Below, piece after piece: positions 2,015 through 29,245 of a stretch of 29,245 bases of DNA. Below the pieces are notes generated by a model. The model searched no databases and was not told the origin of the DNA. It was given only the letters and a program-made list of their open reading frames with translations. The stretch's first letter is position 1. Every line of letters starts with the position of its first letter. The translations under genes were made by a program, and so were the position numbers. The DNA is from a virus (Duplodnaviria; Heunggongvirae; Uroviricota; Caudoviricetes). Location of the stretch: positions 1-29,245 of the IMG/VR virus record IMGVR_UViG_2778261122_000007. One strand, 5' to 3'.

Positions 2015-2269
2015 ATGAACCAGAAAACACTTGAAGATGTAATCAAAACTGTTCGCGTTGCTGTTGTGGCCGACGTTTGTGGTGTCAGCCAAAGAGCAAT
2101 CTATAAATGGATGGATAACGGGAAATTGCCTCGCACAGAATATACCGGCGAAACAAATTACGCTGAAAAAATCGCTCTTGCATCAAACGGATTATTTTCT
2201 GCCGATGCAATTTTAACTATTGGCAGGAATAAAACTACTACGAAAAAGCTGATGGGAGTTGATTCATGA
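2015..2269 (+). CDS. Cro/DicC/YdaS-family small HTH regulator
   Basis: 84 aa from ATG 2015 (the track ORF starts earlier at 1943); GAGGG Shine-Dalgarno 5 nt upstream; HTH-like segment CGVSQRAIYKWMDNGKLP; divergent from the repressor. Confidence 0.75.
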   Translation: MNQKTLEDVIKTVRVAVVADVCGVSQRAIYKWMDNGKLPRTEYTGETNYAEKIALASNGLFSADAILTIGRNKTTTKKLMGVDS

Positions 2270-2691
2270 AAATCAAGCATGAACACATCCGCATGGCGAT
2301 GAATGACTGGGCGCGTCCTGATGGTGAAAAAGTTCCGGCAGCTGGAATAACCCAGGCTTATTTTGAGTTGGGTATGACGTTTCCTGAACTGTACGACGAC
2401 AGCCATCCGGAAGCCCTGGCTCGCAATACCCAGAAAATTTTCCGCTGGATAGAGAAAGACACCCCTGATGCAGTTGAAAAAATTCAGGCGTTGTTACCAG
2501 CGATCGAAAAGGCAATGCCACCTTTGCTGGTGGCCAGAATGCGCAGCCACAGTTCAGCTTATTTTCGGGAGCTGGTGGAGACGCGGGAGCGACTGGTGAG
2601 AGACGCTGATGATTTTGTCGCAGTGGCAATCGCCGGTTTCAATCAGATGAACCGTGGTGGCCCGGCAGGAAATGCTGTGGCAGTACATTGA
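2266..2691 (+). CDS. YdaT-like protein (CII-like regulator/toxin family of Rac-type prophages)
   Basis: 141 aa; start overlaps the upstream stop (ATGA); N-terminus MKIKHEHI and C-terminal ...VH match my recollection of Rac YdaT; position after the cro-like gene is as in Rac (ydaS-ydaT-ydaU). Confidence 0.65.
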   Translation: MKIKHEHIRMAMNDWARPDGEKVPAAGITQAYFELGMTFPELYDDSHPEALARNTQKIFRWIEKDTPDAVEKIQALLPAIEKAMPPLLVARMRSHSSAYFRELVETRERLVRDADDFVAVAIAGFNQMNRGGPAGNAVAVH

Positions 2692-2762
2692 CTGACAATA
2701 GCCATATCGAATCGCTTCCGGCAACTCGTGAGTAAAAAGATTCGGTATCAGAAGAGGTGAGT

Positions 2763-3833
2763 ATGGCTAACGCCTGGCTCAGATTATGGCATGACATGCC
2801 AAATGACCCTAAGTGGCGAACAATTGCCAGGGTGTCAGGGCAGCCAATTGCAACAGTGATGGCAGTGTATATCCACCTCCTGGTGAGTGCGTCACGAAAT
2901 GTCACGCGAGGTCACATTGATGTCACGACAGAAGATTTGGCAAGTGCGCTCGACGTGACAGAAGAGGTAATTGATTCAATTTTGCAGACGATGCAGGGGC
3001 GGGTACTTGATGGTGATTTAATCACTGGATGGGAAAAACGCCAGGTGCTTAAAGAGGACAACGGCAATATTTCGCAAACCGCAAAATCTCCTGCAGAGCG
3101 CAAGAGGGCGCAGCGAGAGAGGGAAAGAAAGCGGGAACAAAATGGCGATTGTCACGGCGCGTCACGAAATGTCACGCACATGTCACGACGAGTCACGACA
3201 GATAAAGATACAGATAAAGATACAGATCAAGAAGATCAAAACACTATGGTCCATGGCGTAAAAAACGCCACGAACCAGGCAGGGGATGTTCAGACCGTCA
3301 ATCCTGGTCAGCCAGCAGGCACGACACCGGAAGCCGATTCAGCGTATGCGCTGAAAGCCGATTCGGGCGCTGTGCAGCAGGCGATGACCGCAGGGTCGGA
3401 GCAATCACACCAACTGCAGCAGCCTGAAGCCGATTCCGCCATTCAGCGGGAAGCCGATCGGGTAGTCCCGAAAAACACCGGGCAGCCTGTGGGACGAGTG
3501 GATTATCCGGATGTGTTCGAACAGATCTGGCGGGAGTACCCGTTGCGTGCCGGGGCAAACCCGAAGAAATCCGCTTTCAGTGCCTGGAAGGCCAGATTAC
3601 GCGAGGGGGTGCCACCAGAGGCCATGCTGGATGGCGTGAGGCGTTACGCAAGATACCTAGCGGTTACCGGGAAAACGGGAACGGAATTTGTTCAGCGGGC
3701 GACGACGTTTTTTGGACCGGACCGGAATTTTGAAAACCCCTGGTTGCTCCCGGTAAGCGGCACGAACAACCAGCGTTGTGTGAATCATATTTCTGAACCG
3801 GATACCGAAATTCCGCCGGGCTTCAGGGGGTAA
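2763..3833 (+). CDS. replication initiation protein (lambda O / YdaU-like), with internal iterons
   Basis: 356 aa from ATG 2763 (GAAGAGG Shine-Dalgarno; the track begins at GTG 2757); position after the cro/cII-like genes; contains two GTCACG iteron arrays and an adjacent tandem repeat, as lambda O contains its origin; basic/acidic low-complexity linker. Confidence 0.7.
   Translation: MANAWLRLWHDMPNDPKWRTIARVSGQPIATVMAVYIHLLVSASRNVTRGHIDVTTEDLASALDVTEEVIDSILQTMQGRVLDGDLITGWEKRQVLKEDNGNISQTAKSPAERKRAQRERERKREQNGDCHGASRNVTHMSRRVTTDKDTDKDTDQEDQNTMVHGVKNATNQAGDVQTVNPGQPAGTTPEADSAYALKADSGAVQQAMTAGSEQSHQLQQPEADSAIQREADRVVPKNTGQPVGRVDYPDVFEQIWREYPLRAGANPKKSAFSAWKARLREGVPPEAMLDGVRRYARYLAVTGKTGTEFVQRATTFFGPDRNFENPWLLPVSGTNNQRCVNHISEPDTEIPPGFRG
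2889..2959. repeat. iteron array 1: GTCAC(G/A) at 2891, 2901, 2911, 2922 (10-11 bp phasing) plus an inverted copy at 2954-2959
   Basis: Counted directly from the sequence; the 19-mer GCGTCACGAAATGTCACGC at 2889-2907 is repeated exactly at 3159-3177. Confidence 0.75.
3151..3197. repeat. iteron array 2: GTCACG at 3151, 3161, 3171, 3182, 3192 (10-11 bp phasing)
   Basis: Counted directly from the sequence; five helically phased copies; encodes the repeated RNVT/RRVT peptide motif in frame. Confidence 0.75.
3201..3228. repeat. tandem repeat GATAAAGATACA (about 2.3 copies), A/T-rich, immediately after iteron array 2
   Basis: Seen directly (gataaagataca gataaagataca gatc); encodes DKDTDKDTD; its position matches the A/T-rich unwinding element next to the iterons in lambda ori. 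Confidence 0.6.
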
Positions 3834-3873
3834 GTGTTTATTTCAGCTCATGAGGTAATTATCAGGAGGAGTT

Positions 3874-4299
3874 GTGGCAAAAGTTTTTACACAAGAAGAG
3901 CGGGAAAAAATTAAAGGGCAGGTTGTTGAACTTGTACGCCAGAGTGGGCGCGAGACGTTACGGCAACTGGAAGCCAAGACAGGTGCGACAAGATATTTGA
4001 TGAGTGTTCTCGCCAGAGAGCTGGTTGCCAGTGGCGATGTATACAATTCTGGCTACGGGTTATTCCCGTCTGAACAGGCTCGTAAAGACTGGCAAAACGC
4101 CCGCAAAAAATTATCGAGGGCAAAGCTGAAGAAACCGGTTGTGGTTGATCCGGACCTTATGTGGTCATTACCAGATGGAGAAATACGTCGCTACGACAGG
4201 CACCTGAATATAATCTGTCGCGAGTGCCGGGAGAGCGAAGTTATGCAGCGCATACTGGCATTTTATCAAGGAAATGTTAGGTATTTTAGACGTTACTAG
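3874..4299 (+). CDS. hypothetical protein (141 aa), possibly winged-helix-like
   Basis: ORF from the track with AGGAGG Shine-Dalgarno upstream (3862-3867); sits where a helicase loader (lambda P / DnaC-like) would be expected but is far too small and has no ATPase motifs. Confidence 0.55.
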   Translation: MAKVFTQEEREKIKGQVVELVRQSGRETLRQLEAKTGATRYLMSVLARELVASGDVYNSGYGLFPSEQARKDWQNARKKLSRAKLKKPVVVDPDLMWSLPDGEIRRYDRHLNIICRECRESEVMQRILAFYQGNVRYFRRY

Positions 4300-4527
4300 A
4301 TTAAAGAGCATTAGTTCAGATGTGAATTGACATTTTCATGGCGCAGGGTAGAGCTAGCGTGGTAGTTTTCTTTGTGCCAGAAACGGCATTTGCAAATATG
4401 GCCATGCGCTGTCACTTAGAGAGGAGCACAGGATTTACCTGTGCTCAAGTTCAATAGTAAAGATGAAAATATTATGAAGATGGTGGGGGAAATGTAACTG
4501 CAGTAATACTTTGTGCAAAAGTAGTAA

Positions 4528-5034
4528 TTATTTCTTTGCAGCCAGAATCAGGCCGTCAAGCCACTCCTGGTGACCATTGAGCATTGGGTTCGGACGAGTA
4601 TTTGCCAGGTCTTTTGCTGGAACTCCGTTCTGCGTTTCCTGTGTCAGGATACGGAGTCTGTTACCCGAGAGTTCCTCCAGTAGCCACGCATGATGAACAT
4701 CTAGGCGTTGTACAGTATCTTTTTCACCGGACCATCCGTGCCATGCCAAACGAGCAGGTTTACCTTCAGTAGGTGGAATAAATTCCACGACCTGAGCTTC
4801 AACCGGAAATCCAAATGTGCTGAAGTAAAAGCGCACGCCATTTTCCAGCTCCGGACCTTTATTGTTATAAAAGCGCACATCTGCTGAATTTTTATAGTAT
4901 TCCGGCCATAGTAATGGCTGACTAAGGAGTGGCCAAACATCATTGATGTTCAGACCGGAGATGATCATTTCATTAGACACAAAGTTATCAGTAAATCCCG
5001 GAACAAAGCCTTCTGGCCAGTGAATAGCGTTCAT
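4528..5034 (-). CDS. SRPBCC (Bet v1-like / polyketide cyclase-like) family protein
   Basis: 168 aa from ATG at 5034 (GGAGG Shine-Dalgarno on the reverse strand; the track ORF starts at TTG 5046); aromatic-rich composition typical of SRPBCC ligand-binding folds; family assigned by recognition, not by search. Confidence 0.7.
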   Translation of the reverse strand: MNAIHWPEGFVPGFTDNFVSNEMIISGLNINDVWPLLSQPLLWPEYYKNSADVRFYNNKGPELENGVRFYFSTFGFPVEAQVVEFIPPTEGKPARLAWHGWSGEKDTVQRLDVHHAWLLEELSGNRLRILTQETQNGVPAKDLANTRPNPMLNGHQEWLDGLILAAKK

Positions 5035-5169
5035 AAATGCCTCCAATTGCGGTAGTTAATTGTACTGGGTTTGCTGCGTTACGACCGCAACACGATGGCA
5101 GTGATTATTAGCGCAATGAAGTTATAAGGCGAATTATGATTACTTATAATCTTAATAAGATAAATTATA

Positions 5170-6078
5170 TCAGGAGCCAGTATCTTGGCTAACTTCTACG
5201 CATAAAGCCCGAATCCACTGATGGCTAGGGTCACGATGAGTTCGTTCATGCCAGGCCATACTCTTGGTAAAGCCCGGAACTTTCAGGGGCAAAGGGAGTA
5301 TGATTAGATCGTTGTTAGTCAGGACCATGCGGTGGGGGACAACAGCGATCATATCAGTCACTTGCAATATATCAGGAACTACTTGAAAACTATTAACTGA
5401 CATGCCTACTCGTCGTGTCAGACTGAGCTTAGCCAGTGCTTCATCTGTAACACCGGAGAAGCTACCTTCTGAAGACACCAGAATATGTTCCTGTTTGCAA
5501 AATTGTTCGAGAGTCATTTCTGAATTCGCTGACAACGGATGATTCCGTCGTGCTATGCAAACATAATCTTCTTCATAAAGTGCTCTGCCGTGCAGCTCTC
5601 CGGGAGTGGTTTGTGGTGTTACCAAAGCCAGATCAACTTCTCCCTGAGATAACTGCTGATATATTCGTTTATTGTCTACAGGCCGCACAGAGATTTTAAT
5701 ATTCGGTGCTCGATGTTTCAGCGCAGCCATCAATGGGACAACAACAGCCTTAACTGCATAGTCCGTTGCGACAATGGTATAAGTTAGTTCTGCCGTCATG
5801 GGGTCAAATTTACTTGGTTTCAGCAGAATCGCGATATCGGTGAGAATTTGTTTTACCGGCATAGCAAGCTCTTTGGCACGTAGTGTGGGAACCATACCGT
5901 GACTGGTGCGAACAAAGAGAGGATCGCAAAAATAATCACGTAATCGAATAAGCATGCCACTGACAGCGGGCTGCGTCAGGGAGAGTCGCTGCGCAGCCCG
6001 AGTCACGCTTCCCTCATCCATTAACGCATCAAAGGTCTTAAGTAAGTTAAGGTCGAGGGTTTTGATATCATTTTTCAT
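5170..6078 (-). CDS. LysR-family transcriptional regulator
   Basis: 302 aa; canonical LysR N-terminal HTH (LNLLKTFDALMDEGSVTRAAQRLSLTQPAVSGMLIRLRDYF) followed by a substrate-binding domain. Confidence 0.9.
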   Translation of the reverse strand: MKNDIKTLDLNLLKTFDALMDEGSVTRAAQRLSLTQPAVSGMLIRLRDYFCDPLFVRTSHGMVPTLRAKELAMPVKQILTDIAILLKPSKFDPMTAELTYTIVATDYAVKAVVVPLMAALKHRAPNIKISVRPVDNKRIYQQLSQGEVDLALVTPQTTPGELHGRALYEEDYVCIARRNHPLSANSEMTLEQFCKQEHILVSSEGSFSGVTDEALAKLSLTRRVGMSVNSFQVVPDILQVTDMIAVVPHRMVLTNNDLIILPLPLKVPGFTKSMAWHERTHRDPSHQWIRALCVEVSQDTGS

Positions 6079-6409
6079 AATGAGGTCACCTGACAGATAT
6101 AAAAATGTTGATTGAGGCTAATTGCCCCGATGAAGGTTGTCGAGGGGAACCAGGAGTTTTTTCTTTTGGGTGATTTCCATTGCTGGATAGTTCCCTTGTA
6201 CAGATAAGTCCGTTCTTCGCACAAAGCGGACTGGAAGGTTAGCTTGAGTCGGACTTTGCGTATTAGAAGAAGTGCTGGTGGTGACTGGTTCTTGAGCCCC
6301 ATTTCCCCAGAAAAAATCAGAGAAACTATACCCAATAGTTGTATTGATTCACTGACGAGACGGCCTCATATTGATAGGGACTAGTGTGCATCCAATACAG
6401 GAGGTTGTT

Positions 6410-6499
6410 GTGCTGGTTCTCAAATGTGCGCTGGCTATTGCGGCTGTAATGGCAATTTATTGTCTTTCTGTTGTTCTTATGGATCGCCTTTCTGATTGA
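6410..6499 (+). CDS. candidate small hydrophobic membrane peptide (29 aa; MLVLKCALAIAAVMAIYCLSVVLMDRLSD)
   Basis: Not in the ORF track (shorter than 60 aa). Strong CAGGAGG Shine-Dalgarno at 6398-6404, 5 nt before GTG 6410; single predicted transmembrane helix; lies upstream of hok. Confidence 0.35.
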   Translation: MLVLKCALAIAAVMAIYCLSVVLMDRLSD

Positions 6500-6653
6500 T
6501 TTCATATTGGCGAGGTAACGGTAGTTAAGTAGAATTGCTGCGGGTGCTTGAGGCTATCTGCCTCGGGCATGAACACCAACGGCAGATAGAGAAAAGCCCC
6601 AGTTAACATTACGCGTCCTGCAAGACGTTTAACATTAATCTGAGGCCATATCT

Positions 6654-6713
6654 ATGCGACACATAGAGATTAGCCTCTTACGGACCGAAAGGTCAAGGAG
6701 AAGCAGGCTATGA
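6654..6713 (+). CDS. mok-like leader ORF (19 codons) translationally coupled to hok
   Basis: ATG 6654 to TGA 6711-6713; the stop overlaps the hok start (ctATGa). Classic mok is longer, so this is an inference. Confidence 0.3.
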   Translation: MRHIEISLLRTERSRRSRL

Positions 6714-6865
6714 AGCAGCAAAAGGCGATGCTAATCGCCCTGATCGTCATCTGTTTAACCGTCATAGTGACGGCACTGGTAACGAGGAAAGACCTCTGCG
6801 AGGTACGAATCCGAACCGGCCAGACGGAGGTCGCTGTCTTCACAGCTTACGAACCTGAGGAGTAA
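6710..6865 (+). CDS. hok: Hok/Gef-family type I toxin (51 aa), HokD/RelF-like
   Basis: Not in the ORF track. Translation MKQQKAMLIALIVICLTVIVTALVTRKDLCEVRIRTGQTEVAVFTAYEPEE has the Hok signature (TM helix, TRK.LCE.R motif, conserved Cys); matches HokD as I recall it; structured leader upstream and terminator downstream. Confidence 0.85.
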   Translation: MKQQKAMLIALIVICLTVIVTALVTRKDLCEVRIRTGQTEVAVFTAYEPEE

Positions 6866-6933
6866 GAGACCAGGCGGGGGAGAAATCCCTCGCCACCTCT
6901 GATGTGTCAGGCATCCTCAACGCACCCGCACTT

Positions 6934-6960
6934 AACCCGCTTCGGCGGGTTTTGTTTTTT
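6934..6960 (+). terminator. rho-independent terminator downstream of hok
   Basis: AACCCGC-TTCG-GCGGGTT hairpin followed by TTTGTTTTTT. Confidence 0.7.
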
Positions 6961-7032
6961 CCTAGCATTCTGGTTTACAATTCGCACGCCAGCCTGAACA
7001 ACTGGCACCTGCTGCGCCAGCAGAGACAACCG

Positions 7033-7311
7033 ATGGCGCGCGATACCAAATTACACAATTCTAATGATTCTGCCGTCTTTGCCAGCAGGTGCGGACGGCG
7101 TTTTCACGCATTCAAATCAGACTGGTTCCAGCATCCTCCATGCACTGAAGAGCAGGCTGAATGGATAATTCAGTGTTACCGCAGGCGTGGATACGAGGTT
7201 AAGAAAGCTCTTAGTCTCGACTATCGTCACTGGATAATCTCAGTCAGACTCCCTTACTCCGAACGCCCACCGCGTCCGTCCCGCACATTCCAGCAACGGA
7301 TTTGGAGGTAA
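7033..7311 (+). CDS. hypothetical protein (92 aa), rem-like by position between hok and the DUF968 gene
   Basis: The track ORF 6904-7311 spans the hok terminator, so the first ATG after it (7033) is used; the hok-rem-ydfU-Q order is as I recall it for Qin. Start and identity are uncertain. Confidence 0.4.
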   Translation: MARDTKLHNSNDSAVFASRCGRRFHAFKSDWFQHPPCTEEQAEWIIQCYRRRGYEVKKALSLDYRHWIISVRLPYSERPPRPSRTFQQRIWR

Positions 7312-7312
7312 C

Positions 7313-8362
7313 GTGCGGGTATTACTTCGACCTGTTCTGGTACCGGAACTCGGGCTGGTGGTCCTTAAGCCAGGTCGTGAATCCATGCAGGTATTTCACA
7401 ATCCTCGAGTGCTGGTGGAGCCGGAACCGAAAAGCATGTGCGGCCTGCCATCCGGAGTCGTCCCTGCCGTTCGCCAGCCGCTGGCGGAGGATAAATCATT
7501 ACTGCCATTTTTCAGCGATGAGCGGGTGATTCGTGCTGCTGGCGGCGCTGGGGCACTGTCTGACTGGCTGTTGCGTCATGTCAAATCCTGCCAGTGGCCT
7601 CATGGTGACTATCATCACAGTGAAATCGTCATACATCGTTACGGTACCGGCGCGATGGTGTTGTGCTGGCACTGCGACAACCAGCTGCGTGACCAGACAT
7701 CCGAATCACTCGAGCAACTTGCTCATCAAAATCTGTCAGCATGGATGATTGACGTCATACGCCATGCAATGAATGGCACGCAGGAGAGGGAGTTATCGCT
7801 GGCTGAATTATCCTGGTGGGCGGTCTGCAATCAAGTGGCGGACGCGCTTCCGGAGGCAGTATTACGTCGTTCTCTGGGGTTACGTGCGGAAAAAATCCGC
7901 TCAATGTACCGTGAAAGCGACATCGTACCGGGAGAGCAGACCGCCACCAGCATACTGAAGCAGCGCACAAAAAATCTTGCGCCGTTGCTTCACACCCACC
8001 AGCCACAGAACCCAGCACAGGAAAAGCAGGTGGTCAGCATTGCCGTTGATCCGGAGTCTCCGGAATCTTTCATGAGGCGACCTAAACGTCGCCGTTGGGT
8101 AAATGAGAAATATACGCGCTGGGTGAAGACACAGCCGTGTGCGTGTTGTGGTCAACCAGCCGACGATCCCCATCACCTGATTGGTCACGGTCAGGGAGGG
8201 ATGGGAACAAAGGCCCACGATATTTTCACGCTACCGTTGTGCCGGGAACATCACAACGAACTTCATGCGGATCCGCTGGCGTTCGAAGAAAAGCATGGTT
8301 CTCAGGTTGATTTAATTTTTCGTTTTCTTGATCACGCCTTTGCAACCGGCGTGCTTGGGTAA
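7313..8362 (+). CDS. DUF968-family prophage protein (YdfU-like) with a C-terminal Cys/His cluster
   Basis: 349 aa; GTG 7313 preceded by GGAGG at 7304-7308; C-terminus CACCGQPADDPHHLIGHGQGGMGTKAHDIFTLPLCREHHNELH resembles an HNH/zinc-binding motif; position just upstream of rusA and Q. Confidence 0.7.
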   Translation: MRVLLRPVLVPELGLVVLKPGRESMQVFHNPRVLVEPEPKSMCGLPSGVVPAVRQPLAEDKSLLPFFSDERVIRAAGGAGALSDWLLRHVKSCQWPHGDYHHSEIVIHRYGTGAMVLCWHCDNQLRDQTSESLEQLAHQNLSAWMIDVIRHAMNGTQERELSLAELSWWAVCNQVADALPEAVLRRSLGLRAEKIRSMYRESDIVPGEQTATSILKQRTKNLAPLLHTHQPQNPAQEKQVVSIAVDPESPESFMRRPKRRRWVNEKYTRWVKTQPCACCGQPADDPHHLIGHGQGGMGTKAHDIFTLPLCREHHNELHADPLAFEEKHGSQVDLIFRFLDHAFATGVLG

Positions 8363-8374
8363 AAGAGGTTACTG

Positions 8375-8734
8375 ATGCGTATAGAGTTTGTTTTGCCTTA
8401 TCCGCCGACGGTGAATACTTACTGGCGACGTCGTGGCAGCACATATTTTGTATCAAAAGTCGGTGAGTGTTATCGCCGTGATGTGGCGCTTATTGTTCGC
8501 CAGCAGCGGCTGAAATTAAAACTGTCCGGAAGGCTGGCGATAAAGATTATTGCAGAGCCACCGGATAAGCGCCGTCGTGACCTGGACAATATCCTGAAAG
8601 CACCACTGGATGCGCTGACGCATGCCGGACTACTCATAGACGACGAGCAGTTTGATGAAATCAATATTGTGCGCGGTCAGCTCGTTCCTGGTGGGCGGCT
8701 GGGGATAAAAATCACAGAACTGGAGTGCGCATGA
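8375..8734 (+). CDS. rusA: RusA Holliday-junction resolvase
   Basis: 119 aa; DKRRRDLDN motif and overall similarity to E. coli RusA; located in the nin-like region before Q. Confidence 0.9.
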   Translation: MRIEFVLPYPPTVNTYWRRRGSTYFVSKVGECYRRDVALIVRQQRLKLKLSGRLAIKIIAEPPDKRRRDLDNILKAPLDALTHAGLLIDDEQFDEINIVRGQLVPGGRLGIKITELECA

Positions 8735-9420
8735 ATAACCAGTATTTACAGTTTGTGCGTGAGCAGCTCATTATCGCCACCGCTGATTTGAGTGGGGCAA
8801 CAAAAGGTCAGCTTGAAGTCTGGCAGGAGAATGCCATGTTCGATACAGGGCGTTACAGGCGAAAAAAAATCCGGTACCGCGATGAAGTGACTGGAAAAAT
8901 GATAACGCGGGATAATCCACCAATCCCGGGAAAGCAATCGCTGGCGAAGGGGACGTCAATTCCTCTGGTCAGTCCGGTTGAGTTTTCGACATCATCGTGG
9001 CGGCGGGCTGTTCTGTCTCTTGAAGAACATCATAAAGCCTGGTTGTTATGGTGTTACAGCGGGAGTATTTGTTGGGAATATCAGATCGCGATAACACAGT
9101 GGGCGTGGAATGAATTTAATACTCAATCCGGTACCAGAAAAATTGCAGGGAAAACGCAGGAACGCCTGAAAAAATTAATCTGGCTGGCGGCGCAGGCAGT
9201 AAAAGCAGAACTTTTAGATGGGGAAGGTTATGAATACCAGGAGCTGGCATTACTGGCGGGAGTGACAACTAAAAACTGGTCCAAAACATTTACTCGTCAC
9301 TGGGTTGCAATGAAACACATTTTTCAACGACTGGATAGTGAGGCTTTATTGTTTGTAATGAGAACGCGTTCAAAACAAAAGGCGGCATTTTCAAAGCAAA
9401 GTGTTGCAAAAGTAGATTGA
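8731..9420 (+). CDS. late-gene antiterminator Q-like protein
   Basis: 229 aa from ATG 8731 (overlaps the rusA stop in ATGA; the track starts at GTG 8725); last early gene before the tRNA/lysis region; Q family assigned by position and size, not by a recognised motif. Confidence 0.7.
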   Translation: MNNQYLQFVREQLIIATADLSGATKGQLEVWQENAMFDTGRYRRKKIRYRDEVTGKMITRDNPPIPGKQSLAKGTSIPLVSPVEFSTSSWRRAVLSLEEHHKAWLLWCYSGSICWEYQIAITQWAWNEFNTQSGTRKIAGKTQERLKKLIWLAAQAVKAELLDGEGYEYQELALLAGVTTKNWSKTFTRHWVAMKHIFQRLDSEALLFVMRTRSKQKAAFSKQSVAKVD

Positions 9421-9485
9421 AAGGCATATATTTCATGCAAATCTGATATTTTGCCGATTTTGTACGTGATGGCAAAAGCAAACAA

Positions 9486-9511
9486 AACCCGCCCACAAGC
9501 GGGTTTTTTTG
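9486..9511 (+). terminator. rho-independent terminator after Q (tR'-like candidate)
   Basis: AAACCCGC-CCACAA-GCGGGTTT hairpin followed by a T7 run. Confidence 0.7.
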
Positions 9512-9630
9512 TGCCACTTATCTCGGATAGACATGGTGAATGCGCTGGTGGAGGAAGTAAGGGTAATTTTTAACCAGGTGATTCTTGAATGCTTGCAACA
9601 TTGATTTCGTAACGTTATTATCCTGCGCCC

Positions 9631-9706
9631 GGCCCTTTAGCTCAGTGGTGAGAGCGAGCGACTCATAATCGCCAGGTCGCTGGTTCAAATCCAGCAAGGG
9701 CCACCA
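9631..9706 (+). tRNA. tRNA with CAU anticodon, Ile2 (lysidine) type, ileX/ileZ-like
   Basis: Manual cloverleaf: acceptor GGCCCTT/AAGGGCC, anticodon arm GCGACTCATAATCGC, T-loop TTCAAAT, encoded CCA; very close to my recollection of E. coli ileX. Confidence 0.8.
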
Positions 9707-9707
9707 A

Positions 9708-9784
9708 CCGCCACTAGCTCATCAGGAAAGAGCGTCAACCCTTTAAGTTGAGTGTGCGAGGTTCGAGTCCCCGGTGGCGGTCCA
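9708..9784 (+). tRNA. tRNA-like gene, anticodon loop CCUUUAA (apparent anticodon UUU, Lys); non-canonical C33 and an A-C mismatch in the T-stem
   Basis: Manual fold: acceptor CCGCCAC/GTGGCGG, D-arm GCTC/GAGC, anticodon stem TCAAC/GTTGA, T-loop TTCGAGT, encoded CCA. Identity is uncertain; it could be a degenerate or specialised tRNA. Confidence 0.5.
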
Positions 9785-9786
9785 GT

Positions 9787-9862
<76 letters not shown>

Positions 9863-9865
9863 TAT

Positions 9866-9940
<75 letters not shown>

Positions 9941-10283
9941 GCAAAACGGATGAGGTACAGGTTTTTCAGCACTGGCGTTTTCTCGTGGGGAATGGTCTCT
10001 TCAATATATTGATTGGAACCCCAAACTATAACTGAGGCCAGATATAGTTTCAGTGCTGTGTTTTTTGACAACAGTGGAATAGGGCATTGTCAGTAGGCGT
10101 TTAGCGTTTTTAGAAACTGATTAGGCACTACTCCGGTGTTGTTAACACCATCCAATGAGGTGAACTCTTGTGCGGAGGTGGTTTCATACGTTGTCTGACG
10201 GGAAACCTCGTATCTGGTGTAGGGGCAGATATTTCGGGTGAATCCCGACACCTCAAATATAAAAGATGTATCTACATGCTTTT

Positions 10284-10309
10284 AGCCGCCGCTCCGGCGG
10301 CTTTTTTTA
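10284..10309 (+). terminator. rho-independent terminator between the tRNA cluster and the lysis genes
   Basis: AGCCGCC-GCTCC-GGCGGCT hairpin followed by TTTTTTT. Confidence 0.65.
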
Positions 10310-10427
10310 TTCATGCTGACTTCCTTCATTGTTAGTTATGGTGTTCTAAGGACTTTCTGTAACTGCATTTTCCCTGCACAAATTATTCATATTAACTACG
10401 CCATCCGTTATTTGCGGAGGTGAGGCT

Positions 10428-10643
10428 ATGAAATCCATGGACAAAATCTCAACGGGCATTGCCTACGGCACCTCCGCAGGCAGTGCTGGCTACTGGTTTT
10501 TACAGTGGCTTGATCAGGTCAGTCCGTCACAGTGGGCTGCGATTGGTGTACTGGGGAGTCTGGTTCTGGGCTTGCTGACGTATCTGACAAACCTTTATTT
10601 CAAGATTAAAGAAGATAAGCGTAAGGCTGCGAGAGGTGAATAA
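10428..10643 (+). CDS. S: class II holin / pinholin (phage 21 S-like) with dual start (Met1 antiholin, Met4 holin)
   Basis: 71 aa; [30 protein letters not shown]... is near-identical to phage 21 S as I recall it; GGAGG Shine-Dalgarno upstream; two TM segments. Confidence 0.9.
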
Positions 10644-11140
10644 TGCCGCCATCATTACGCAAGGCTGTTGCTGCTGCTATTGGTGGTGGGGCTGTTGCCA
10701 TAGCGTCTGTGCTCATCACTGGTCCGAGTGGTGACGATGGCCTGGAAGGTGTCAGCTACATACCATACAAAGATATCGTTGGCGTATGGACTGTATGTCA
10801 CGGACACACCGGAAAAGACATCATTCCCGGTAAAACGTATACCGAAGCAGAATGCAAAGCCCTCCTGAATAAAGACCTTGCCACGGTCGCCAGACAAATT
10901 AACCCGTACATCAAAGTCGATATACCGGAAACAACGCGCGGCGCTCTTTACTCGTTCGTTTACAACGTGGGCGCTGGCAATTTCAGAACATCGACGCTTC
11001 TTCGCAAAATCAACCAGGGTGATATCAAAGGTGCGTGTGATCAGCTACGTCGCTGGACATACGCTGGTGGTAAGCAACGGAAAGGTCTCATGACTCGCCG
11101 TGAGATTGAGCGTGAAGTCTGTTTGTGGGGGCAACAATGA
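10643..11140 (+). CDS. R: SAR endolysin (lysozyme, phage 21 R-like)
   Basis: 165 aa; Gly/Ala-rich N-terminal signal-anchor-release helix ([20 protein letters not shown]) followed by a lysozyme domain; start overlaps the holin stop. Confidence 0.9.
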
Positions 11141-11601
11141 GCAGAGTAACCGCGATTATCTCCGCTCTGGTTATCTGCATCATCGTCAGCCTGTCATGGG
11201 CAGTCAATTATTACCGTGATAACGCCATCTCCTACAAAGACCAGCGCGATAAAGCGAAGGAAAAACTCAGCCAGGCGAACGCCACCATCACTGACATGCA
11301 GCAGCGCCAGCGTGATGTTGCTGCACTGGATGAAAAATACTCAAGGGAGTTAGCTGATGCAAAAGCTGAAAATGATGCTCTGCGTGATGATATTGCCACT
11401 GGTCGTCGTCGGTTGCGCATCAGAGCAGTCTGTCAGACCGTGCGTGAAGCCACCGCCGCCTCCGACATGGGTAATGCAGCCGCCCCCCGACTGGCAGACA
11501 CCGCTGAACGGGATTATTTCACCCTCAGAGAGCGGCTGATAATAATGCAAAAACAACTGGAAGGGGCACAGCTATACATTCGTGAGCAATGTCTCAGATA
11601 A
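11137..11601 (+). CDS. Rz: Rz i-spanin
   Basis: ATG 11137 overlaps the endolysin stop (ATGA); N-terminal TM segment followed by a coiled-coil periplasmic domain; Rz1 is embedded in the +1 frame. Confidence 0.85.
11357..11539 (+). CDS. Rz1: Rz1 o-spanin lipoprotein, embedded within Rz
   Basis: 60 aa; lipobox LVVVGC; proline-rich ([18 protein letters not shown]); entirely inside Rz in another frame. Confidence 0.85.
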
Positions 11602-11756
11602 AAACCGGCCAAGGATAATCCGCTGAAGATTCGCCGGTGGCGAAAGAGAGCCAAGGTGTCAACCTACGCTATTTCTTATGATAATGCAACGGACGAAGCG
11701 GGACATATTGGCGCATAACAAATCAGTGCAGGCTAACTGCAGGAAGAACTTAGGGC

Positions 11757-12023
11757 GTGAACGTAGAAAACCTAAGTAACGCACATTACATCTATAACGA
11801 GATGAAAGAGCTACAGCGACAGAAAGGTATACTGGAAAGTGGTGCAGGGCTTGGTGTGACAATCCAGTCTGCCTATCAATATAGTGCTTTTCTTGAGGCC
11901 ATACGCCCGCATGCAGTTGCTGAACTTGACAGCCGTATTGAGGAAAAGAAATCCGCGCTGGTTAATTTGGGTGCTTCCTTCTCTATATACGAGCATAATA
12001 AGGCGGGTTGGAAACCCGCCTAA
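11757..12023 (+). CDS. hypothetical protein (88 aa); doubtful
   Basis: ORF from the track; its 3' end reads through the hairpin at 12002-12020; no clear Shine-Dalgarno noted. Confidence 0.3.
   Translation: MNVENLSNAHYIYNEMKELQRQKGILESGAGLGVTIQSAYQYSAFLEAIRPHAVAELDSRIEEKKSALVNLGASFSIYEHNKAGWKPA
12002..12020. terminator. stem-loop between the convergent 11757-12023 ORF and the YfbU-like gene; likely terminator of the minus-strand gene
   Basis: GGCGGGT-TGGAA-ACCCGCC perfect 7-bp stem; on the minus strand it is followed by UUAUUAU. Confidence 0.45.
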
Positions 12024-12028
12024 AGCAC

Positions 12029-12568
12029 TTAGAAACTGCGTGGAGCTGTGGAAAGAATGGATGCCAGTTCTTCCTTCGATAAATCCCAGCTTCGATTTAC
12101 AGCGTCAATTTTCTTACACTCATCAAGCATTGCGTTATAGAGATGTTCTGTAAGTGAATGAGTATTGGCAATGGGCTGTTTCTGTTCGGGGAAGCGATCA
12201 AATTTCTGATACGCCTCAATGATACTGAAGTAATCGCATTCATTATTACCGTCGAAACCTGGAAGCTGAATTGCCCCATCATGTATTTTTAGATGATGGT
12301 CACGGACTAATTCTTTTTGCTCGTCATCACTAAGTTTCCTGAAAGCATTGGAAAGTCCGCGATACATATTCAAGACAGCAGTAACAAAATCACGATCTTC
12401 TTTACTTGGTTCGTCAACATCCAAATGTGAATATTCGGCCTTGATAACCCAATCATTACCAGATGACACAGCATATTTAACAAGCTGTGGATCAATATCA
12501 GTTTCGATACCTAGGTGGATGGCAATGTCACATAACAAAATGGTATTGATTTTATCTTTAATATCCAT
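12029..12568 (-). CDS. YfbU-family (UPF0304-like) protein; moron between the lysis and packaging modules
   Basis: 179 aa; recalled similarity to E. coli YfbU (VLNMY..L, GFDGNNE versus GFDAATE, FDRFPEQ region); opposite orientation to the flanking phage operons. Confidence 0.6.
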   Translation of the reverse strand: MDIKDKINTILLCDIAIHLGIETDIDPQLVKYAVSSGNDWVIKAEYSHLDVDEPSKEDRDFVTAVLNMYRGLSNAFRKLSDDEQKELVRDHHLKIHDGAIQLPGFDGNNECDYFSIIEAYQKFDRFPEQKQPIANTHSLTEHLYNAMLDECKKIDAVNRSWDLSKEELASILSTAPRSF

Positions 12569-12706
12569 GAGTTAACCCTCTGAAGTAAAAAGTAATATCT
12601 ATACCCGTTGGCTCATGAAGTCTATTGATCTGTCTCATATCAGCAGCAAATCTATTCCATGGAGATACTCAATGCAGGTCACCTTTGATTTATATAAGGG
12701 CGAAAC

Positions 12707-13057
12707 ATGCCAGCACTAATCCCACGCGCCTGCCGTAAGCGTGGATGTGCAGGTACAACCACAGACAGTTCTGGTTACTGCGATAAACATCGTGGCGAAG
12801 GATGGGTACAGCATCAACGCGGACTGAGCCGCCACCAGCGTGGCTATGGCTCGAAATGGGATGCCATACGTGCGCGCATACTGAAGCGTGATAATCATCT
12901 GTGTCAGAACTGCCTGCGCAATGGCAGAGCCGTTGAAGCCAGAACTGTGGACCACATCATTCCGAAAGCTCATGGTGGCACGGATGCAGACAGTAACCTG
13001 CAGACTCTGTGCTGGCCCTGTCATAAAGCAAAAACAGCGCGCGAACGCATCAATTGA
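12707..13057 (+). CDS. HNH endonuclease (terminase-associated)
   Basis: 116 aa; N-terminal Cys cluster and HNH core (DHIIPKAHGGTDADSNLQTLCWPCH); immediately upstream of the small terminase. Confidence 0.85.
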   Translation: MPALIPRACRKRGCAGTTTDSSGYCDKHRGEGWVQHQRGLSRHQRGYGSKWDAIRARILKRDNHLCQNCLRNGRAVEARTVDHIIPKAHGGTDADSNLQTLCWPCHKAKTARERIN

Positions 13058-13204
13058 TAACAGCTCCCATCTGCAGGGGAGGGGCGGGTCAAATCTCTGC
13101 AACCCTGGCTGTTCAGTACCGCCGCCTGACCTTTCCTCGCATCGCCGCAGGTTCGAAAACTTTTTTTTGGAATGTGATTAAATGATTGATAGGTAAAATC
13201 GATT

Positions 13205-13687
13205 ATGTCAGGCCCCCCGAAAACCCCGCCACGCCTGCATTTGATACGAGGCAACCCCTCAAAGCGCCCCGTTAAAGACCCCAAAAAAACCGCTAAAAAG
13301 GATGAAAAAGGTCTCCCTAAAATTCCGCAACATTTAGGGTCGCAGGGGAAGTACTGGTTCAGGCGAATGGCGGAAGAACTGAATGCGGAAGGGATCATTT
13401 CTCAGCTTGATGCGCGTGCACTCGAGTTACTGGTGGAAGCCTACACCGAATACCGGCATCACTGCGAAACACTTGATGCTGAGGGGTATACCTACCGCAC
13501 GGAAACGCAGAACGGTGATGTGCTGATTAAGGCACACCCGGCTGCTGCGATGAAGGCGGATGCCTGGAAGCGGATCCGGGCGATGCTTGCAGAGTTTGGT
13601 ATGTCACCGGCAAGCCGGGCTAAAGTAAATACCGCCGGACCGGATGATGTTGATCCGCTGGCGGAGCTTTTAAAAGCGAGAGACTGA
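13205..13687 (+). CDS. terminase small subunit (P27 family-like)
   Basis: 160 aa; basic N-terminus (PKTPPRLHLIRGNPSKRP); immediately precedes and overlaps the large terminase. Confidence 0.8.
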   Translation: MSGPPKTPPRLHLIRGNPSKRPVKDPKKTAKKDEKGLPKIPQHLGSQGKYWFRRMAEELNAEGIISQLDARALELLVEAYTEYRHHCETLDAEGYTYRTETQNGDVLIKAHPAAAMKADAWKRIRAMLAEFGMSPASRAKVNTAGPDDVDPLAELLKARD

Positions 13688-15444
13688 TGGCAAAAGTGGC
13701 TGACGGGATCCGCTACGCCGAACGTGTTGTTGCAGGAGAAATTGTCGCTGGCGAATTTGTCCGTCTGGCCTGCCAGCGTTTTCTTGATGATCTGAAGTAC
13801 GGCGAAGAGCGGGGGATTTATTTCAGTGAATCCCGTGCGCAGCACATCCTGAATTTCTACAAATTTGTGCCCCATGTGAAAGGGGCGCTGGCAGGCCAGC
13901 CCATTGAGTTGATGGACTGGCATGTATTTATCCTCATTAATATTTTTGGTTTTGTCATTCCGCTGGTGAATGAAGAGACCGGGGAAGTTGTCATGCGCAG
14001 CGATGGCAGCGGACGCCCGGTGATGGTGCGCCGGTTCCGGACGGCGTACAACGAAGTCGCCCGTAAAAACGCAAAATCAACCCTGTCATCGGGTATCGGC
14101 CTGTATATGACGGGGGCAGATGGTGAAGGCGGTGCTGAGGTGTATTCAGCCGCAACCACGCGTGACCAGGCCAGAATCGTGTTTGAAGACGCCAAAAATA
14201 TGGTCAGAAAAGCCCGGTCGACACTCGGGCGGTTGTTTGATTTCAACAAGCTGGCGATTTACCAGGAGCAGAGCGCATCAAAATTTGAACCGCTTTCTTC
14301 GGATGCAAACAACCTGGATGGTCTGAACATCCACTGCGCCATTATTGATGAGCTGCATGCACATAAAACCCGCGACGTGTGGGACGTTCTGGAAACGGCA
14401 ACTGGTGCCCGTCTGCAGTCCCTTTTATTTGGTATCACCACGGCTGGCTTTAACAAGGAAGGGATTTGTTACGAGCAACGCGATTACGCCATCAAGGTAT
14501 TGCGAGGCTATAACAGCGACGTGGAGGGCGCGGTAAAAGACGACTCCTACTTTGCGATTATTTACACCCTCGATGAGGGAGATGATCCGTTTGATGAAAC
14601 GGTCTGGCAGAAAGCGAATCCCGGCCTGGGCATCTGTAAACGCTGGGATGATCTGCGTCGTCTGGCGAAAAAGGCGAAGGAGCAGGTCTCGGCGCGGGTG
14701 AATTTTTTCACAAAACACATGAATGTGTGGGTCACTGCCGAGTCTGCCTGGATGGACATGATTAAGTGGGAGAAATGCGAATATATTGCCCCACGACATG
14801 AGCTGAAAACGTATCCCATGTGGGTCGGCGTTGACCTTGCTCATAAGATTGATATCTGTGCGGCGGCAAAACTCTGGCGAACGGATAACGGGCATGTTCA
14901 TGCCGATTTTAAATTCTGGCTCCCGGAAGGACGGCTGGAACGATGCTCGCGGCAGCAGGCAGAACTTTACCGGAAGTGGGCGGAGATGGATAAGCTGATT
15001 CTGACGGATGGTGATGTTATCGATCATGCTCAGATAAAAAGTGACTTACTGGAATGGATTGGCGGTGAAAACCTGAGGGAACTGGGATTTGACCCGTGGA
15101 GCGCGATGCAGTTCAGCCTGGCACTGGCTGAAGAAGGGATACCGCTGGTGGAGGTTCCGCAGACGGTTCGCAATCTGTCAGAGGCCATGAAGGAAACGGA
15201 ATCACTGGTCTATGCCGGGCGTTTCCATCACAGCAATCATCCGGTCATGAACTGGATGATGTCTAACGTTACGGTAAAACCGGACAAAAACGACAATATC
15301 TTCCCGAATAAATCCACGCCGGAAGCCAAAATCGACGGCCCTGTTGCGATGTTTACAGCAATGAGCCGGATGCTGGTCAATAGTGGTGAACCGGAGCCGG
15401 ATCTGTCTGAACATCTGGTCAGCGTGGGCATCCGCTCACTTTAA
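13687..15444 (+). CDS. terminase large subunit
   Basis: 585 aa; ATPase region followed by a nuclease region (IIDELH Walker B-like); position and size. Confidence 0.9.
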
Positions 15445-15455
15445 CCGAGGTCATT

Positions 15456-15638
15456 ATGTTTCTGATAATTCTCGCGCCACTGGTGGGCGTGCTGGGTGCG
15501 CTTTTGCTGGCGTATGGTGCCTGGCTGATTTATCCCCCGGCGGGTTTTGTTGTTGCCGGGGTGCTGTGCCTGCTCTGGTCGTGGCTGGTGGCGCGATATC
15601 TCGACCGCACACAGTCGTCTGTCGGCGGAGGTAAATAG
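15456..15638 (+). CDS. small hydrophobic membrane protein (60 aa) between terminase and portal
   Basis: ORF from the track; two predicted TM helices ([24 protein letters not shown] / [16 protein letters not shown]). Confidence 0.45.
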
Positions 15639-27554: not shown

Positions 27555-28082
27555 TTATGGAATGATGCCGCAGGCTATTCTCGCCCCGCCACCGCCGAGT
27601 GGCTCAGGATGGTCATGATGGTTGTCACCGCCTATGTGGATCATGAGAGAACGCCCGCCTATCTCTTGTAACCCTGTCAGTTTCGGTGCGAGTACAGGAT
27701 AGTTCGCCTTTCCATCATGAGTCACATACAGCGCAGGGAGATCACCGAGATGTCCGTCAGGAGACCAGGGGCCAAGATGCTTCCCGGTTTTTTTCGGGTC
27801 AAAGTGACCTCCTGCCGATAATGCCGCGACAGGTTTCCCGTCTTTCAGTGCCGGAGCGCAGTTTCCGTTCTCGTGTACATGAAAACCATGAATACCTTCG
27901 GGTAAAGAGTGAAGATCCGGAGTGAACAGCAGACCATAGGTCGTCTCCTGGACAGTTATTTTTCCAATGCTCTGTTCTTTTCCATCAGCATTCACAAGGT
28001 TCATCGGGACTTCTTTTGTGGCTGCGTATCCACACGATGATGCTGCCAGCATTGCAATGGCAGCAATAACGTTACATTTCAT
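27555..28082 (-). CDS. sodC: periplasmic Cu,Zn superoxide dismutase (prophage-borne moron)
   Basis: Start taken at ATG 28082 (GAGGG Shine-Dalgarno; the track ORF begins 4 codons earlier); signal peptide [20 protein letters not shown]; metal-ligand His motifs ([39 protein letters not shown]) typical of SodC. Confidence 0.9.
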
Positions 28083-28219
28083 AAAACCCCTCATTAAATC
28101 CTGTTAACAGACTGAGTTCGCTGCTTGCAGGAAAACAAGCAGCATTTCGATGATATCGCGCAAAAGTTATGCAATGTGGCTATTGCTGTGATTAATCATA
28201 TCAATCATAAGAGAGCATT

Positions 28220-29245
28220 ATGGGTAAAGGTGGCGGTAAAGCACGTACTCCGCATGAAGTGAAAGATAATCTCAAATCCACGCAGTTACTGAGTGTGATC
28301 GATGCCATCAGCGAAGGGCCGATTGAAGGTCCGGTGGATGGGTTAAAAAGCGTGCTACTGAACAGTACGCCGGTGCTGGACACTGAGGGGAATACCAATA
28401 TCTCCGGTGTCACGGTGGTGTTCCGGGCAGGTGAGCAGGAGCAGACTCCGCCGGAGGGGTTTGAATCCTCCGGCTCCGAGACGGTGCTGGGTACGGAAGT
28501 GAAATATGACACGCCGATAACCCGCACCATCACGTCGGCAAACATCGACCGTCTGCGTTTTACCTTCGGTGTGCAGGCACTGGTGGAAACCACTTCAAAG
28601 GGTGACCGGAATCCGTCGGAAGTTCGCCTGCTGGTTCAGATACAGCGTAACGGTGGCTGGGTGACGGAAAAAGACATCACCATTAAGGGCAAAACCACCT
28701 CGCAGTATCTGGCCTCGGTGGTGGTGGATAACCTGCCTCCGCGCCCGTTCAATATCCGGATGCGCAGGATGACACCGGACAGCACCACAGACCAGCTGCA
28801 GAACAAAACGCTCTGGTCGTCATACACCGAAATCATCGATATGAAACAGTGCTACCCGAACACGGCACTGGTCGGTGTGCAGGTGGACTCGGAGCAGTTC
28901 GGCAGTCAGCAGGTGAGTCGTAATTATCATCTGCGCGGGCGCATTCTGCAGGTGCCGTCGAACTATAACCCGCAGACGCGACAATACAGCGGTATCTGGG
29001 ACGGAACGTTAAAACCGGCATACAGCAACAACATGGCCTGGTGTCTGTGGGATATGCTGACCCATCCGCGCTACGGCATGGGGAAACGTCTTGGTGCGGC
29101 GGATGTGGACAAATGGGCGCTGTATGTCATCGGCCAGAATTGCGACCAGTCGGTGCCGGATGGCTTTGGTGGCACGGAGCCGCGCATCACCTGTAATGCC
29201 TGGCTGACCACACAGCGTAAGGCGTGGGATGTTCTCAGTGATTTC
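28220..29245 (+). CDS. J: tail tip / host-specificity protein J, N-terminal 342 codons (3'-truncated at window end)
   Basis: Absent from the ORF track because it has no stop codon in the window; from ATG 28220 the translation MGKGGGKARTPHEVKDNLKSTQLLSVIDAISEGPIEGPVDGLKSVLLNSTPVLDTEGNTNISGV... closely matches lambda J as I recall it. Confidence 0.9.
   Translation, partial: MGKGGGKARTPHEVKDNLKSTQLLSVIDAISEGPIEGPVDGLKSVLLNSTPVLDTEGNTNISGVTVVFRAGEQEQTPPEGFESSGSETVLGTEVKYDTPITRTITSANIDRLRFTFGVQALVETTSKGDRNPSEVRLLVQIQRNGGWVTEKDITIKGKTTSQYLASVVVDNLPPRPFNIRMRRMTPDSTTDQLQNKTLWSSYTEIIDMKQCYPNTALVGVQVDSEQFGSQQVSRNYHLRGRILQVPSNYNPQTRQYSGIWDGTLKPAYSNNMAWCLWDMLTHPRYGMGKRLGAADVDKWALYVIGQNCDQSVPDGFGGTEPRITCNAWLTTQRKAWDVLSDF

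Follow-up and report, generated by a model that had tools for sequence, protein, structure and literature searches.

What does a reverse-oriented gene of the YfbU family do between the lysis and packaging genes of a lambdoid prophage, and does it travel alone or together with the small open reading frame (ORF) that converges on it? The question is raised by a 29,245-nucleotide stretch of Caudoviricetes DNA (IMG/VR virus record IMGVR_UViG_2778261122_000007, positions 1 to 29,245; hereafter the window), which belongs to a lambdoid Escherichia coli prophage, with the locus in its late region. The gene in question, here called yfbU, occupies 12029-12568 on the minus strand and encodes a protein of 179 residues. 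A preliminary description of the window had noted the resemblance to the YfbU family, listed the function of that family as unknown and left undecided whether the cargo is a single gene or a convergent pair. Our analysis points to a single-gene cargo. We give a probability of roughly one half to the reading that, by analogy with a lactococcal relative named Kamadhenu, yfbU is a prophage-borne anti-phage gene that would protect the lysogen against superinfecting phages.

We therefore begin with the protein itself. The proposed family resemblance held in a hidden Markov model search, in which the 179-residue protein scored 41.8 bits against the Pfam YfbU profile PF03887 (gathering cut-off 25, E 1.5e-10), with residues 46-172 aligned to profile positions 46-164 of 166. 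PF03887 was also present in all full-length homologues of the window protein, which furthermore matched phrog_6084 from end to end (2e-80). The equivalog model of the host protein in NCBIfam, NF003936, was not reached (32.8 bits, cut-off 90), and a single-sequence phmmer search of the PDB sequences missed the solved YfbU structures, including 1WPB. Using a profile of 35 homologues against the PDB sequences, we recovered 1wpb/4lr3 with an E value of 4e-9 and with the GFD...E motif aligned. An AlphaFold 2 (AF2) model built on the homologue alignment reached a predicted local distance difference test (pLDDT) score of 91.7, and a Foldseek search of the PDB with it returned only 4lr3_A and 1wpb, both E. 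coli YfbU (probability 1.00, template modelling (TM) score 0.69-0.75, 176 columns, 15% identity). The fold search of BFVD with the same model gave one unnamed viral match and was uninformative. An identity as a restriction endonuclease of the Cfr10I/Bse634I type was considered and rejected, since the Pfam score of 19.1 bits stays below the cut-off of 27 and the fold search found YfbU only.

Judged from sequence profiles and the predicted fold, the window protein is a true yet distant member of the YfbU family and no orthologue of host YfbU. It has the Pfam family, the overall fold and the GFD...E motif of the C-terminal domain in common with the chromosomal E. coli protein (UPF0304; 1WPB, 4LR3), whereas sequence identity between the two is so low that their relationship escapes a single-sequence search. 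H137 of the phage clade is not kept in host YfbU (NTHS vs NAQT), and while host YfbU is a core chromosomal gene, the window gene is mobile cargo. Structures of host YfbU, which crystallises with 16 chains per entry, have been available since 2004, and we know of no biochemical function for it. Within the clade of the window protein, the homologue alignment revealed C13, A33, W40, G104-F105-D106, E110, H137 and Y144 as invariant, and all of these except A33 are candidate functional-site residues. Pairwise ratios of nonsynonymous to synonymous substitution rates (dN/dS) of 0.08-0.13, obtained against relatives at 71-93% nucleotide identity, show at the sequence level that yfbU is under strong purifying selection.

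The description of the family as one without known function is outdated, because one of its members has been shown experimentally to be an anti-phage gene. Kamadhenu (pUCCL624_130, BioProject PRJNA1086404) is a single gene of Lactococcus plasmids, and its product of 180 residues belongs to PF03887 (Grafakou et al., NAR 2024, PMC11381338). Its constitutive expression made the host fully resistant to every Skunavirus and Ceduovirus phage tested, and at high multiplicity of infection it behaves like an abortive infection (Abi) system (PMC11381338, PMC12184496). All escape mutations fall on residue G22 of a Sak-like single-strand annealing protein (SSAP) (PNAS 2025, PMC12184496). According to a review of 2026, the domain still has no other link to defence (PMC13064643), and in the literature mentioning YfbU we found no paper on the YfbU genes of enterobacterial prophages.

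Kamadhenu and the window protein are of nearly the same length, both consist almost wholly of the YfbU domain (PF03887, with a two-domain helical fold like that of 1WPB), and the genes for both sit on mobile elements, neither with a partner gene that is obligatory. They differ in that Kamadhenu is carried by a plasmid in a Gram-positive host and the window gene by a prophage, and they are likened here by family, size and fold only. Resistance, the Abi-like behavior and the SSAP G22 escape belong to the lactococcal protein and extend to the enterobacterial members only by analogy. A tblastn search of PLSDB with the window protein and an Enterococcus YfbU gave no Lactococcus record among the matches listed, and a homologue search seeded with the Enterococcus YfbU returned no match named Lactococcus, the named ones being Enterococcus.

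Four things speak for the defence reading: the family to which the protein belongs, its architecture, the genomic settings in which such genes occur, and the experiments on one distant relative. As we picture it, a moron with a single gene, some 0.7 kb long (roughly 12001-12706) and consisting of a terminator hairpin, the 179-residue YfbU gene and an upstream control region of its own, would have been inserted by recombination, antisense to the late operon, into a hypervariable slot upstream of the HNH-terminase module. In the lysogen, yfbU would be transcribed from its own promoter, and its product would act like Kamadhenu as a stand-alone defence of the abortive-infection type that shields the lysogen population. 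The trigger would probably be the recombination machinery of the invader (an SSAP) or the DNA intermediates produced by that machinery.

The genomic position of the gene is as it had been described, between a lysis module with holin, lysozyme and Rz on one side and a packaging module with HNH endonuclease, TerS and TerL on the other. The features of this region are as follows.

10428-10643, plus strand: class II holin
10643-11140, plus strand: lysozyme
11125-11601, plus strand: Rz i-spanin, the final lysis gene and left border of the variable region (PF03245 Phage_lysis, 1.8e-48)
11357-11539: Rz1 o-spanin ORF, embedded within Rz (from the ORF list)
11602-11756: non-coding spacer of 155 bp between Rz and the GTG start of orf88
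11757-12023, plus strand: orf88, 88 codons, phrog_5415 family
12001-12021, minus strand: GC-rich stem-loop of 9 bp with a 3-nt loop, interpreted as the intrinsic terminator of yfbU
12029-12568, minus strand: YfbU-family gene, 179 residues, ATG start, the cargo
12569-12706, minus strand: upstream region of yfbU, 138 bp, right border of the cassette
12707-13057, plus strand: HNH endonuclease, which opens the packaging module and forms the right flank of the slot (PF01844, 7.3e-17)
13205-13687, plus strand: TerS, small terminase of the P27 family
13687-15444, plus strand: TerL, large terminase

The spacer at 11602-11756 also contains a promoter-like match on the plus strand (GTGTCA, 18 nt, GATAAT; 11656-11685) and a terminator-like hairpin on the minus strand (11741-11727). 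Positions 2261-16074 of the window are 99.1% identical to a prophage of E. coli ChlosBP-23-1, whose RefSeq annotation has the identical gene order and gives the minus-strand gene as "YfbU family protein". An annotation of the gene is therefore on record, and the literature allows its probable role to be inferred.

That the gene occupies a site where phages of this type carry morons was borne out by comparison with related phages. In phage vB_EcoM-606R7 (ON470580) a spacer of 42 bp is all that separates Rz from the HNH gene, leaving the slot empty, and in phage vB_EcoS-640R1 (ON470612) the same Rz-HNH slot holds bor on the minus strand, a gene of an unrelated protein family. Homology of the window to ON470580 ends at about 11571 and homology to ON470612 at 11600, and in both cases it restarts exactly at the HNH start codon at 12707. 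The guanine plus cytosine (GC) content drops to 0.36-0.43 over 11950-12700, compared with 0.50-0.55 on both flanks. A repeat search found no direct or inverted repeats flanking the cassette, which argues for arrival by recombination and not by transposition. The site just upstream of the packaging module is recognised in E. coli lambdoid phages for anti-phage morons such as Tai (PMC11364771). With flanking genes that adjoin in related phages, a terminator of its own and a deviant base composition, the cargo is, by its sequence features, a solo YfbU-family moron in the classical sense, with a promoter that is a weak candidate only. It resembles known phage morons in being a self-contained transcription unit of deviant GC content between otherwise adjoining genes, and differs from them in that its promoter activity and its expression in the lysogen are what we infer.

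The content of the slot is highly variable. Among prophages that carry orf76, the 76-codon form in which the orf88 family is usually found, the distance from orf76 to the HNH gene ranges from 243 to 2714 bp, and this space accommodates at least 12 different genes, mostly of low GC content, often antisense and without assigned function. Two viral loci (L220 and L225) have orf76, one small ORF and then HNH. Three other cargo genes, at L200:3306-3869 (+), L237:3306-3920 (-) and L217:3264-3944 (-), encode R-x4-H motifs (LRNAFLH, MRNDLAH, ARNSAHH) that are reminiscent of HEPN nucleases, with one weak PADLOC match to CARF_HEPN (E 0.004). These proteins could be Abi-type genes, which would make the slot a defence hotspot.

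The cassette ends at a hairpin. The perfect stem-loop noted in the preliminary description consists of nine pairs, 12001-12009 with 12013-12021, around a GGA loop. Its folding energy is -16.2 kcal/mol on the plus strand and -17.6 kcal/mol on the minus strand (z -3.1 and -3.4), and none of 200 shuffled sequences folded equally well. The proposal that it works in both directions stands as far as the fold is concerned, which is stable on both strands, but not with respect to the tail. On the yfbU strand the hairpin is followed 3' by the U-rich tail UUAUUAUG, whereas the tail on the plus strand reads UAAAGCAC, so that the hairpin looks like a terminator for yfbU alone. A strict consensus terminator scan called it on neither strand. 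The stem is kept by compensatory changes in cassettes from Klebsiella and elsewhere (GGCGGGT/ACCCGCC vs GGCGGGG/CCCCGCC), and nearly every cassette at 48-82% protein identity has a different GC-rich hairpin with a T-rich run 10-25 nt past the stop codon. By these features the hairpin looks like the intrinsic terminator of yfbU itself, and it belongs to the yfbU cassette. On the other side of the gene, a Shine-Dalgarno sequence, AGAGGG, can be read at 12576-12581, and the 138-bp upstream region contains blocks that are conserved in an alignment of eight cassettes. A standard promoter scan found none for yfbU, while a relaxed sigma-70 scan of the upstream region returned TAGACT (12624-12619) and GATATT (12599-12594), spaced by 19 nt, as the sole candidate, a weak one with 8 of 12 matches. 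Searching 11000-13300 against Rfam at E values up to 1 gave no match.

The cassette is found again and again at this position. Among 5426 complete E. coli genomes, 224 (about 4%) carry 12024-12706 at an identity of at least 97%, including those of extraintestinal pathogenic (ExPEC) and avian pathogenic (APEC) strains; CE10 and ChlosBP-23-1 are examples of natural lysogens. These copies are always chromosomal, their ORF is full-length, the Prokaryotic Genome Annotation Pipeline (PGAP) always labels them YfbU family protein, and all 224 lie in the Rz-to-HNH context. Deposited phage records hold a YfbU relative in only 4 of 50,697 cases, 2 of them close, although such genes are common in prophages; 177 IMG/VR contigs encode relatives. 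We surveyed the neighbours of YfbU relatives at 78 viral loci, covering 28-100% identity, and found the same antisense junction. Wherever a lysis gene was recognisable it lay antisense beyond the 3' end of yfbU (48/48), and a recognisable packaging gene lay antisense upstream of yfbU at 45 of the 46 loci having one. This placement extends to relatives at 28-39% identity and to other lysis cassettes (Klebsiella loci L007-L009), and relatives were also detected in prophages of Klebsiella, Enterobacter, Citrobacter type and Salmonella type. The sequence survey shows YfbU relatives to be recurrent occupants of the lysis/packaging junction. Beyond these, clustering of the wider family at 50% identity (E up to 1e-3) gave 2080 clusters, whose members mostly have a single domain and a length of about 180 residues (170-190). 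A tblastn search of PLSDB revealed that relatives are common plasmid genes in Acinetobacter, Xanthomonas, Enterococcus and other genera.

More distant members were examined at 80 loci in bacterial genomes, where the YfbU relatives have 24-36% identity to the window protein, with one exception at 60%. At 28 of these loci a gene on the same strand, about 30 bp upstream of YfbU, encodes a protein of about 165-195 residues with an N-terminal membrane helix (loci L020-L089; for example L021:3465-3968 (+) followed by L021:4001-4510 (+)). This conserved small partner had no Pfam or PADLOC match, and the pair is an undescribed two-gene module. An adjacent same-strand FRG protein matching the PADLOC candidate PDC-S15 (up to 5.7e-82) was present at 9 of the 80 loci (e.g., L028:4545-5228 and L088:3120-3833), and a DUF4062-TIR protein downstream of YfbU at two (L035 and L043); the remaining neighbours were not conserved. 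PADLOC gave no match for two distant YfbU relatives. Four proteins of about 230 residues (P0221, P0224, P0250 and P0256) have an N-terminal extension of about 50 residues, e.g., 'ERVELRLDETTLERVDDWRARQNDLPTRSEAIRRLI', which by eye looks like a ribbon-helix-helix DNA-binding domain as in antitoxins. Judged by their contexts, the distant relatives seem to belong to small mobile islands concerned with defence or addiction. Within the family of the window gene, the distant members occur in variable, island-like contexts and in two-gene arrangements with an FRG/PDC-S15 or a small membrane protein, whereas the window and all viral loci lack both partners.

The convergent neighbour of yfbU in the window, orf88, had been regarded as doubtful. 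It does run into the hairpin, but it is not a doubtful gene: it matches phrog_5415 (5.9e-38), its homologues from Citrobacter, Salmonella, Klebsiella and E. coli form 276 clusters and are almost all 76 residues long, and its dN/dS of 0.12-0.41, mostly around 0.2, indicates purifying selection. AF2 modelled it as a two-helix hairpin with a low-confidence tail, and PADLOC-DB 2.0.0 contained no match for it. One could suppose that orf88 and yfbU form a two-gene convergent unit, a toxin and antitoxin or a sensor and effector, that shares the hairpin as a bidirectional terminator. An orf88 homologue is indeed found beside YfbU at all 35 viral loci with at least 88% identity, convergent except at L117 where it lies about 1.6 kb away, and in the window the two stop codons are 5 bp apart. 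Yet we consider such a unit very improbable. The orf88 family is far wider than that of yfbU (276 vs 44 clusters) and occurs without yfbU at 43 of 76 viral loci and at L004-L006, where it is placed after a DUF2514 spanin in a phage with Nu1/gpA terminase. Conversely, orf88 accompanies none of the YfbU relatives at or below 82% identity to that of the window (0/43 viral loci), and at L194 and L238 it carries in-frame stop codons beside an intact yfbU. Between phages with different cargo, similarity ends directly after the orf76 stop codon. The reading frame of the family ends in ...TTC TCT TAA, and the window has ...TTC TCT ATA TAC, where the frame stays open through the hairpin for 12 more codons before it meets a TAA. 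Hence orf88 enters the hairpin of yfbU because its stop codon was lost, and the overlap is a secondary accident; the U-rich tail on the yfbU strand only likewise speaks against a shared terminator. The wide occurrence of the orf88 family without yfbU, of distant YfbU without orf88, the stop codons and the break in similarity together indicate that the cargo is a single gene. By the same sequence comparisons, orf88 is a real, conserved small gene of the phage late region, ancestrally of 76 codons, and no part of the yfbU cargo.

If yfbU travels alone, it could still serve something other than defence. As a paralogue of host yfbU it might alter the response of the lysogen to DNA damage or stress, towards killing or survival, and could in this way tune prophage induction. 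According to one report, cells die after DNA damage only if host yfbU is present, and deleting the gene blocks this death and also slows growth (PMC2646832). Moreover, bor, which occupies the slot in ON470612, is a serum-resistance conversion gene, and the window carries a further host-directed moron, sodC. We nevertheless hold lysogenic conversion, the main rival reading, to be unlikely. The low identity to host YfbU and the equivalog score below the cut-off make a direct replacement of host YfbU function unlikely, and the mobile, defence-associated spread of the non-host branches as well as the Kamadhenu phenotype fit defence better. The two readings are not mutually exclusive, since abortive infection is a form of regulated death in its own right. 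That the gene benefits the phage in its own lytic growth or entry, as a counter-defence factor, a recombination regulator or a decoy against YfbU-dependent death, seems to us distinctly improbable. Such a role would suit a phage gene that lies near the late genes and whose product is homologous to a host protein implicated in cell death; however, yfbU runs antisense to the late operon and ends at a terminator of its own, which uncouples it from late transcription. Its relatives are rare in deposited phage records though common in prophages, solo relatives on plasmids serve no lytic cycle, and mixed oligomers with host YfbU are unlikely given the low identity. We give hardly any credence to the view that yfbU is decaying passenger DNA without current function. 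In one IMG/VR prophage (L197:3271-5010) an IS5-like transposase gene (326 residues) splits yfbU and leaves N- and C-terminal fragments, which indicates that the cassette is dispensable for the prophage, and some host prophages are degraded. Against this stand the low dN/dS, the full-length ORF throughout the 224 E. coli genomes and the conservation of the terminator and of the upstream block.

Several points nonetheless weigh against a Kamadhenu-like defence function. The phenotype, transcript and protein of the window gene are predictions from its sequence. The kinship with Kamadhenu consists of a shared Pfam family, size and fold, in a family within which identity goes down to 15%, and this family has a chromosomal housekeeping branch, so that membership alone implies no defence. 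With a promoter candidate as weak as the one described, expression in the lysogen is an assumption. PADLOC 2.0.0 gives no match for the window YfbU, a release from 2023 that predates Kamadhenu. Eight proteins encoded by other cargo genes of the same slot gave only weak defence matches with Pfam and PADLOC, all of them sub-threshold hints. Finally, neighbours in the viral survey were recognised by similarity to window proteins, which biases that survey towards related phages.

Other parts of the window carry cargo as well. At 27555-28094 on the minus strand, near the end of the tail genes, lies a second reverse-oriented cargo gene of 179 residues, a prophage moron of the sodC type that encodes a Cu/Zn superoxide dismutase (PF00080 Sod_Cu, 1.1e-32). 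The minus-strand ORF that follows sodC, at 28201-28593 (130 residues), had no Pfam match. Four tRNA genes are clustered at 9631-9940 on the plus strand, between the Q antiterminator and holin. ARAGORN assigns the first to Met (CAT), and RefSeq labels it tRNA-Ile in the 99%-identical prophage; the latter is the expectation for a CAT anticodon if it is modified to lysidine. The other three are Lys-TTT, Thr-TGT and Gly-TCC. In the early region, the minus-strand ORFs at 4528-5046 and 5170-6078 correspond by coordinates to genes of the 99%-identical prophage that RefSeq labels 'polyketide cyclase' and LysR-family regulator. By this annotation transfer, 4528-6078 would be additional non-phage cargo, followed by hokD at about 6710-6865.

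If the window gene acts like Kamadhenu, it would be an immunity determinant that a prophage carries as one gene and that current defence finders overlook, with consequences for the host range of phages used in therapy, and would offer an E. coli system in which to study the mechanism of the YfbU fold. If it has no role in defence, it would still illustrate cleanly how cassettes are exchanged at the slot preceding the packaging module. More tentatively, and with less than even confidence, we consider that the non-housekeeping branches of YfbU may constitute a broad, largely unrecognised anti-phage family. Its several architectures would include the solo genes at prophage junctions, the operons with membrane proteins in many Proteobacteria and other phyla, the pairs with FRG/PDC-S15 and the fusions resembling ribbon-helix-helix proteins. 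Should this be true, the prophage copy in E. coli would offer a tractable model of how the YfbU domain senses phage recombination proteins, and this model would extend to the role of the host YfbU 'death' protein.

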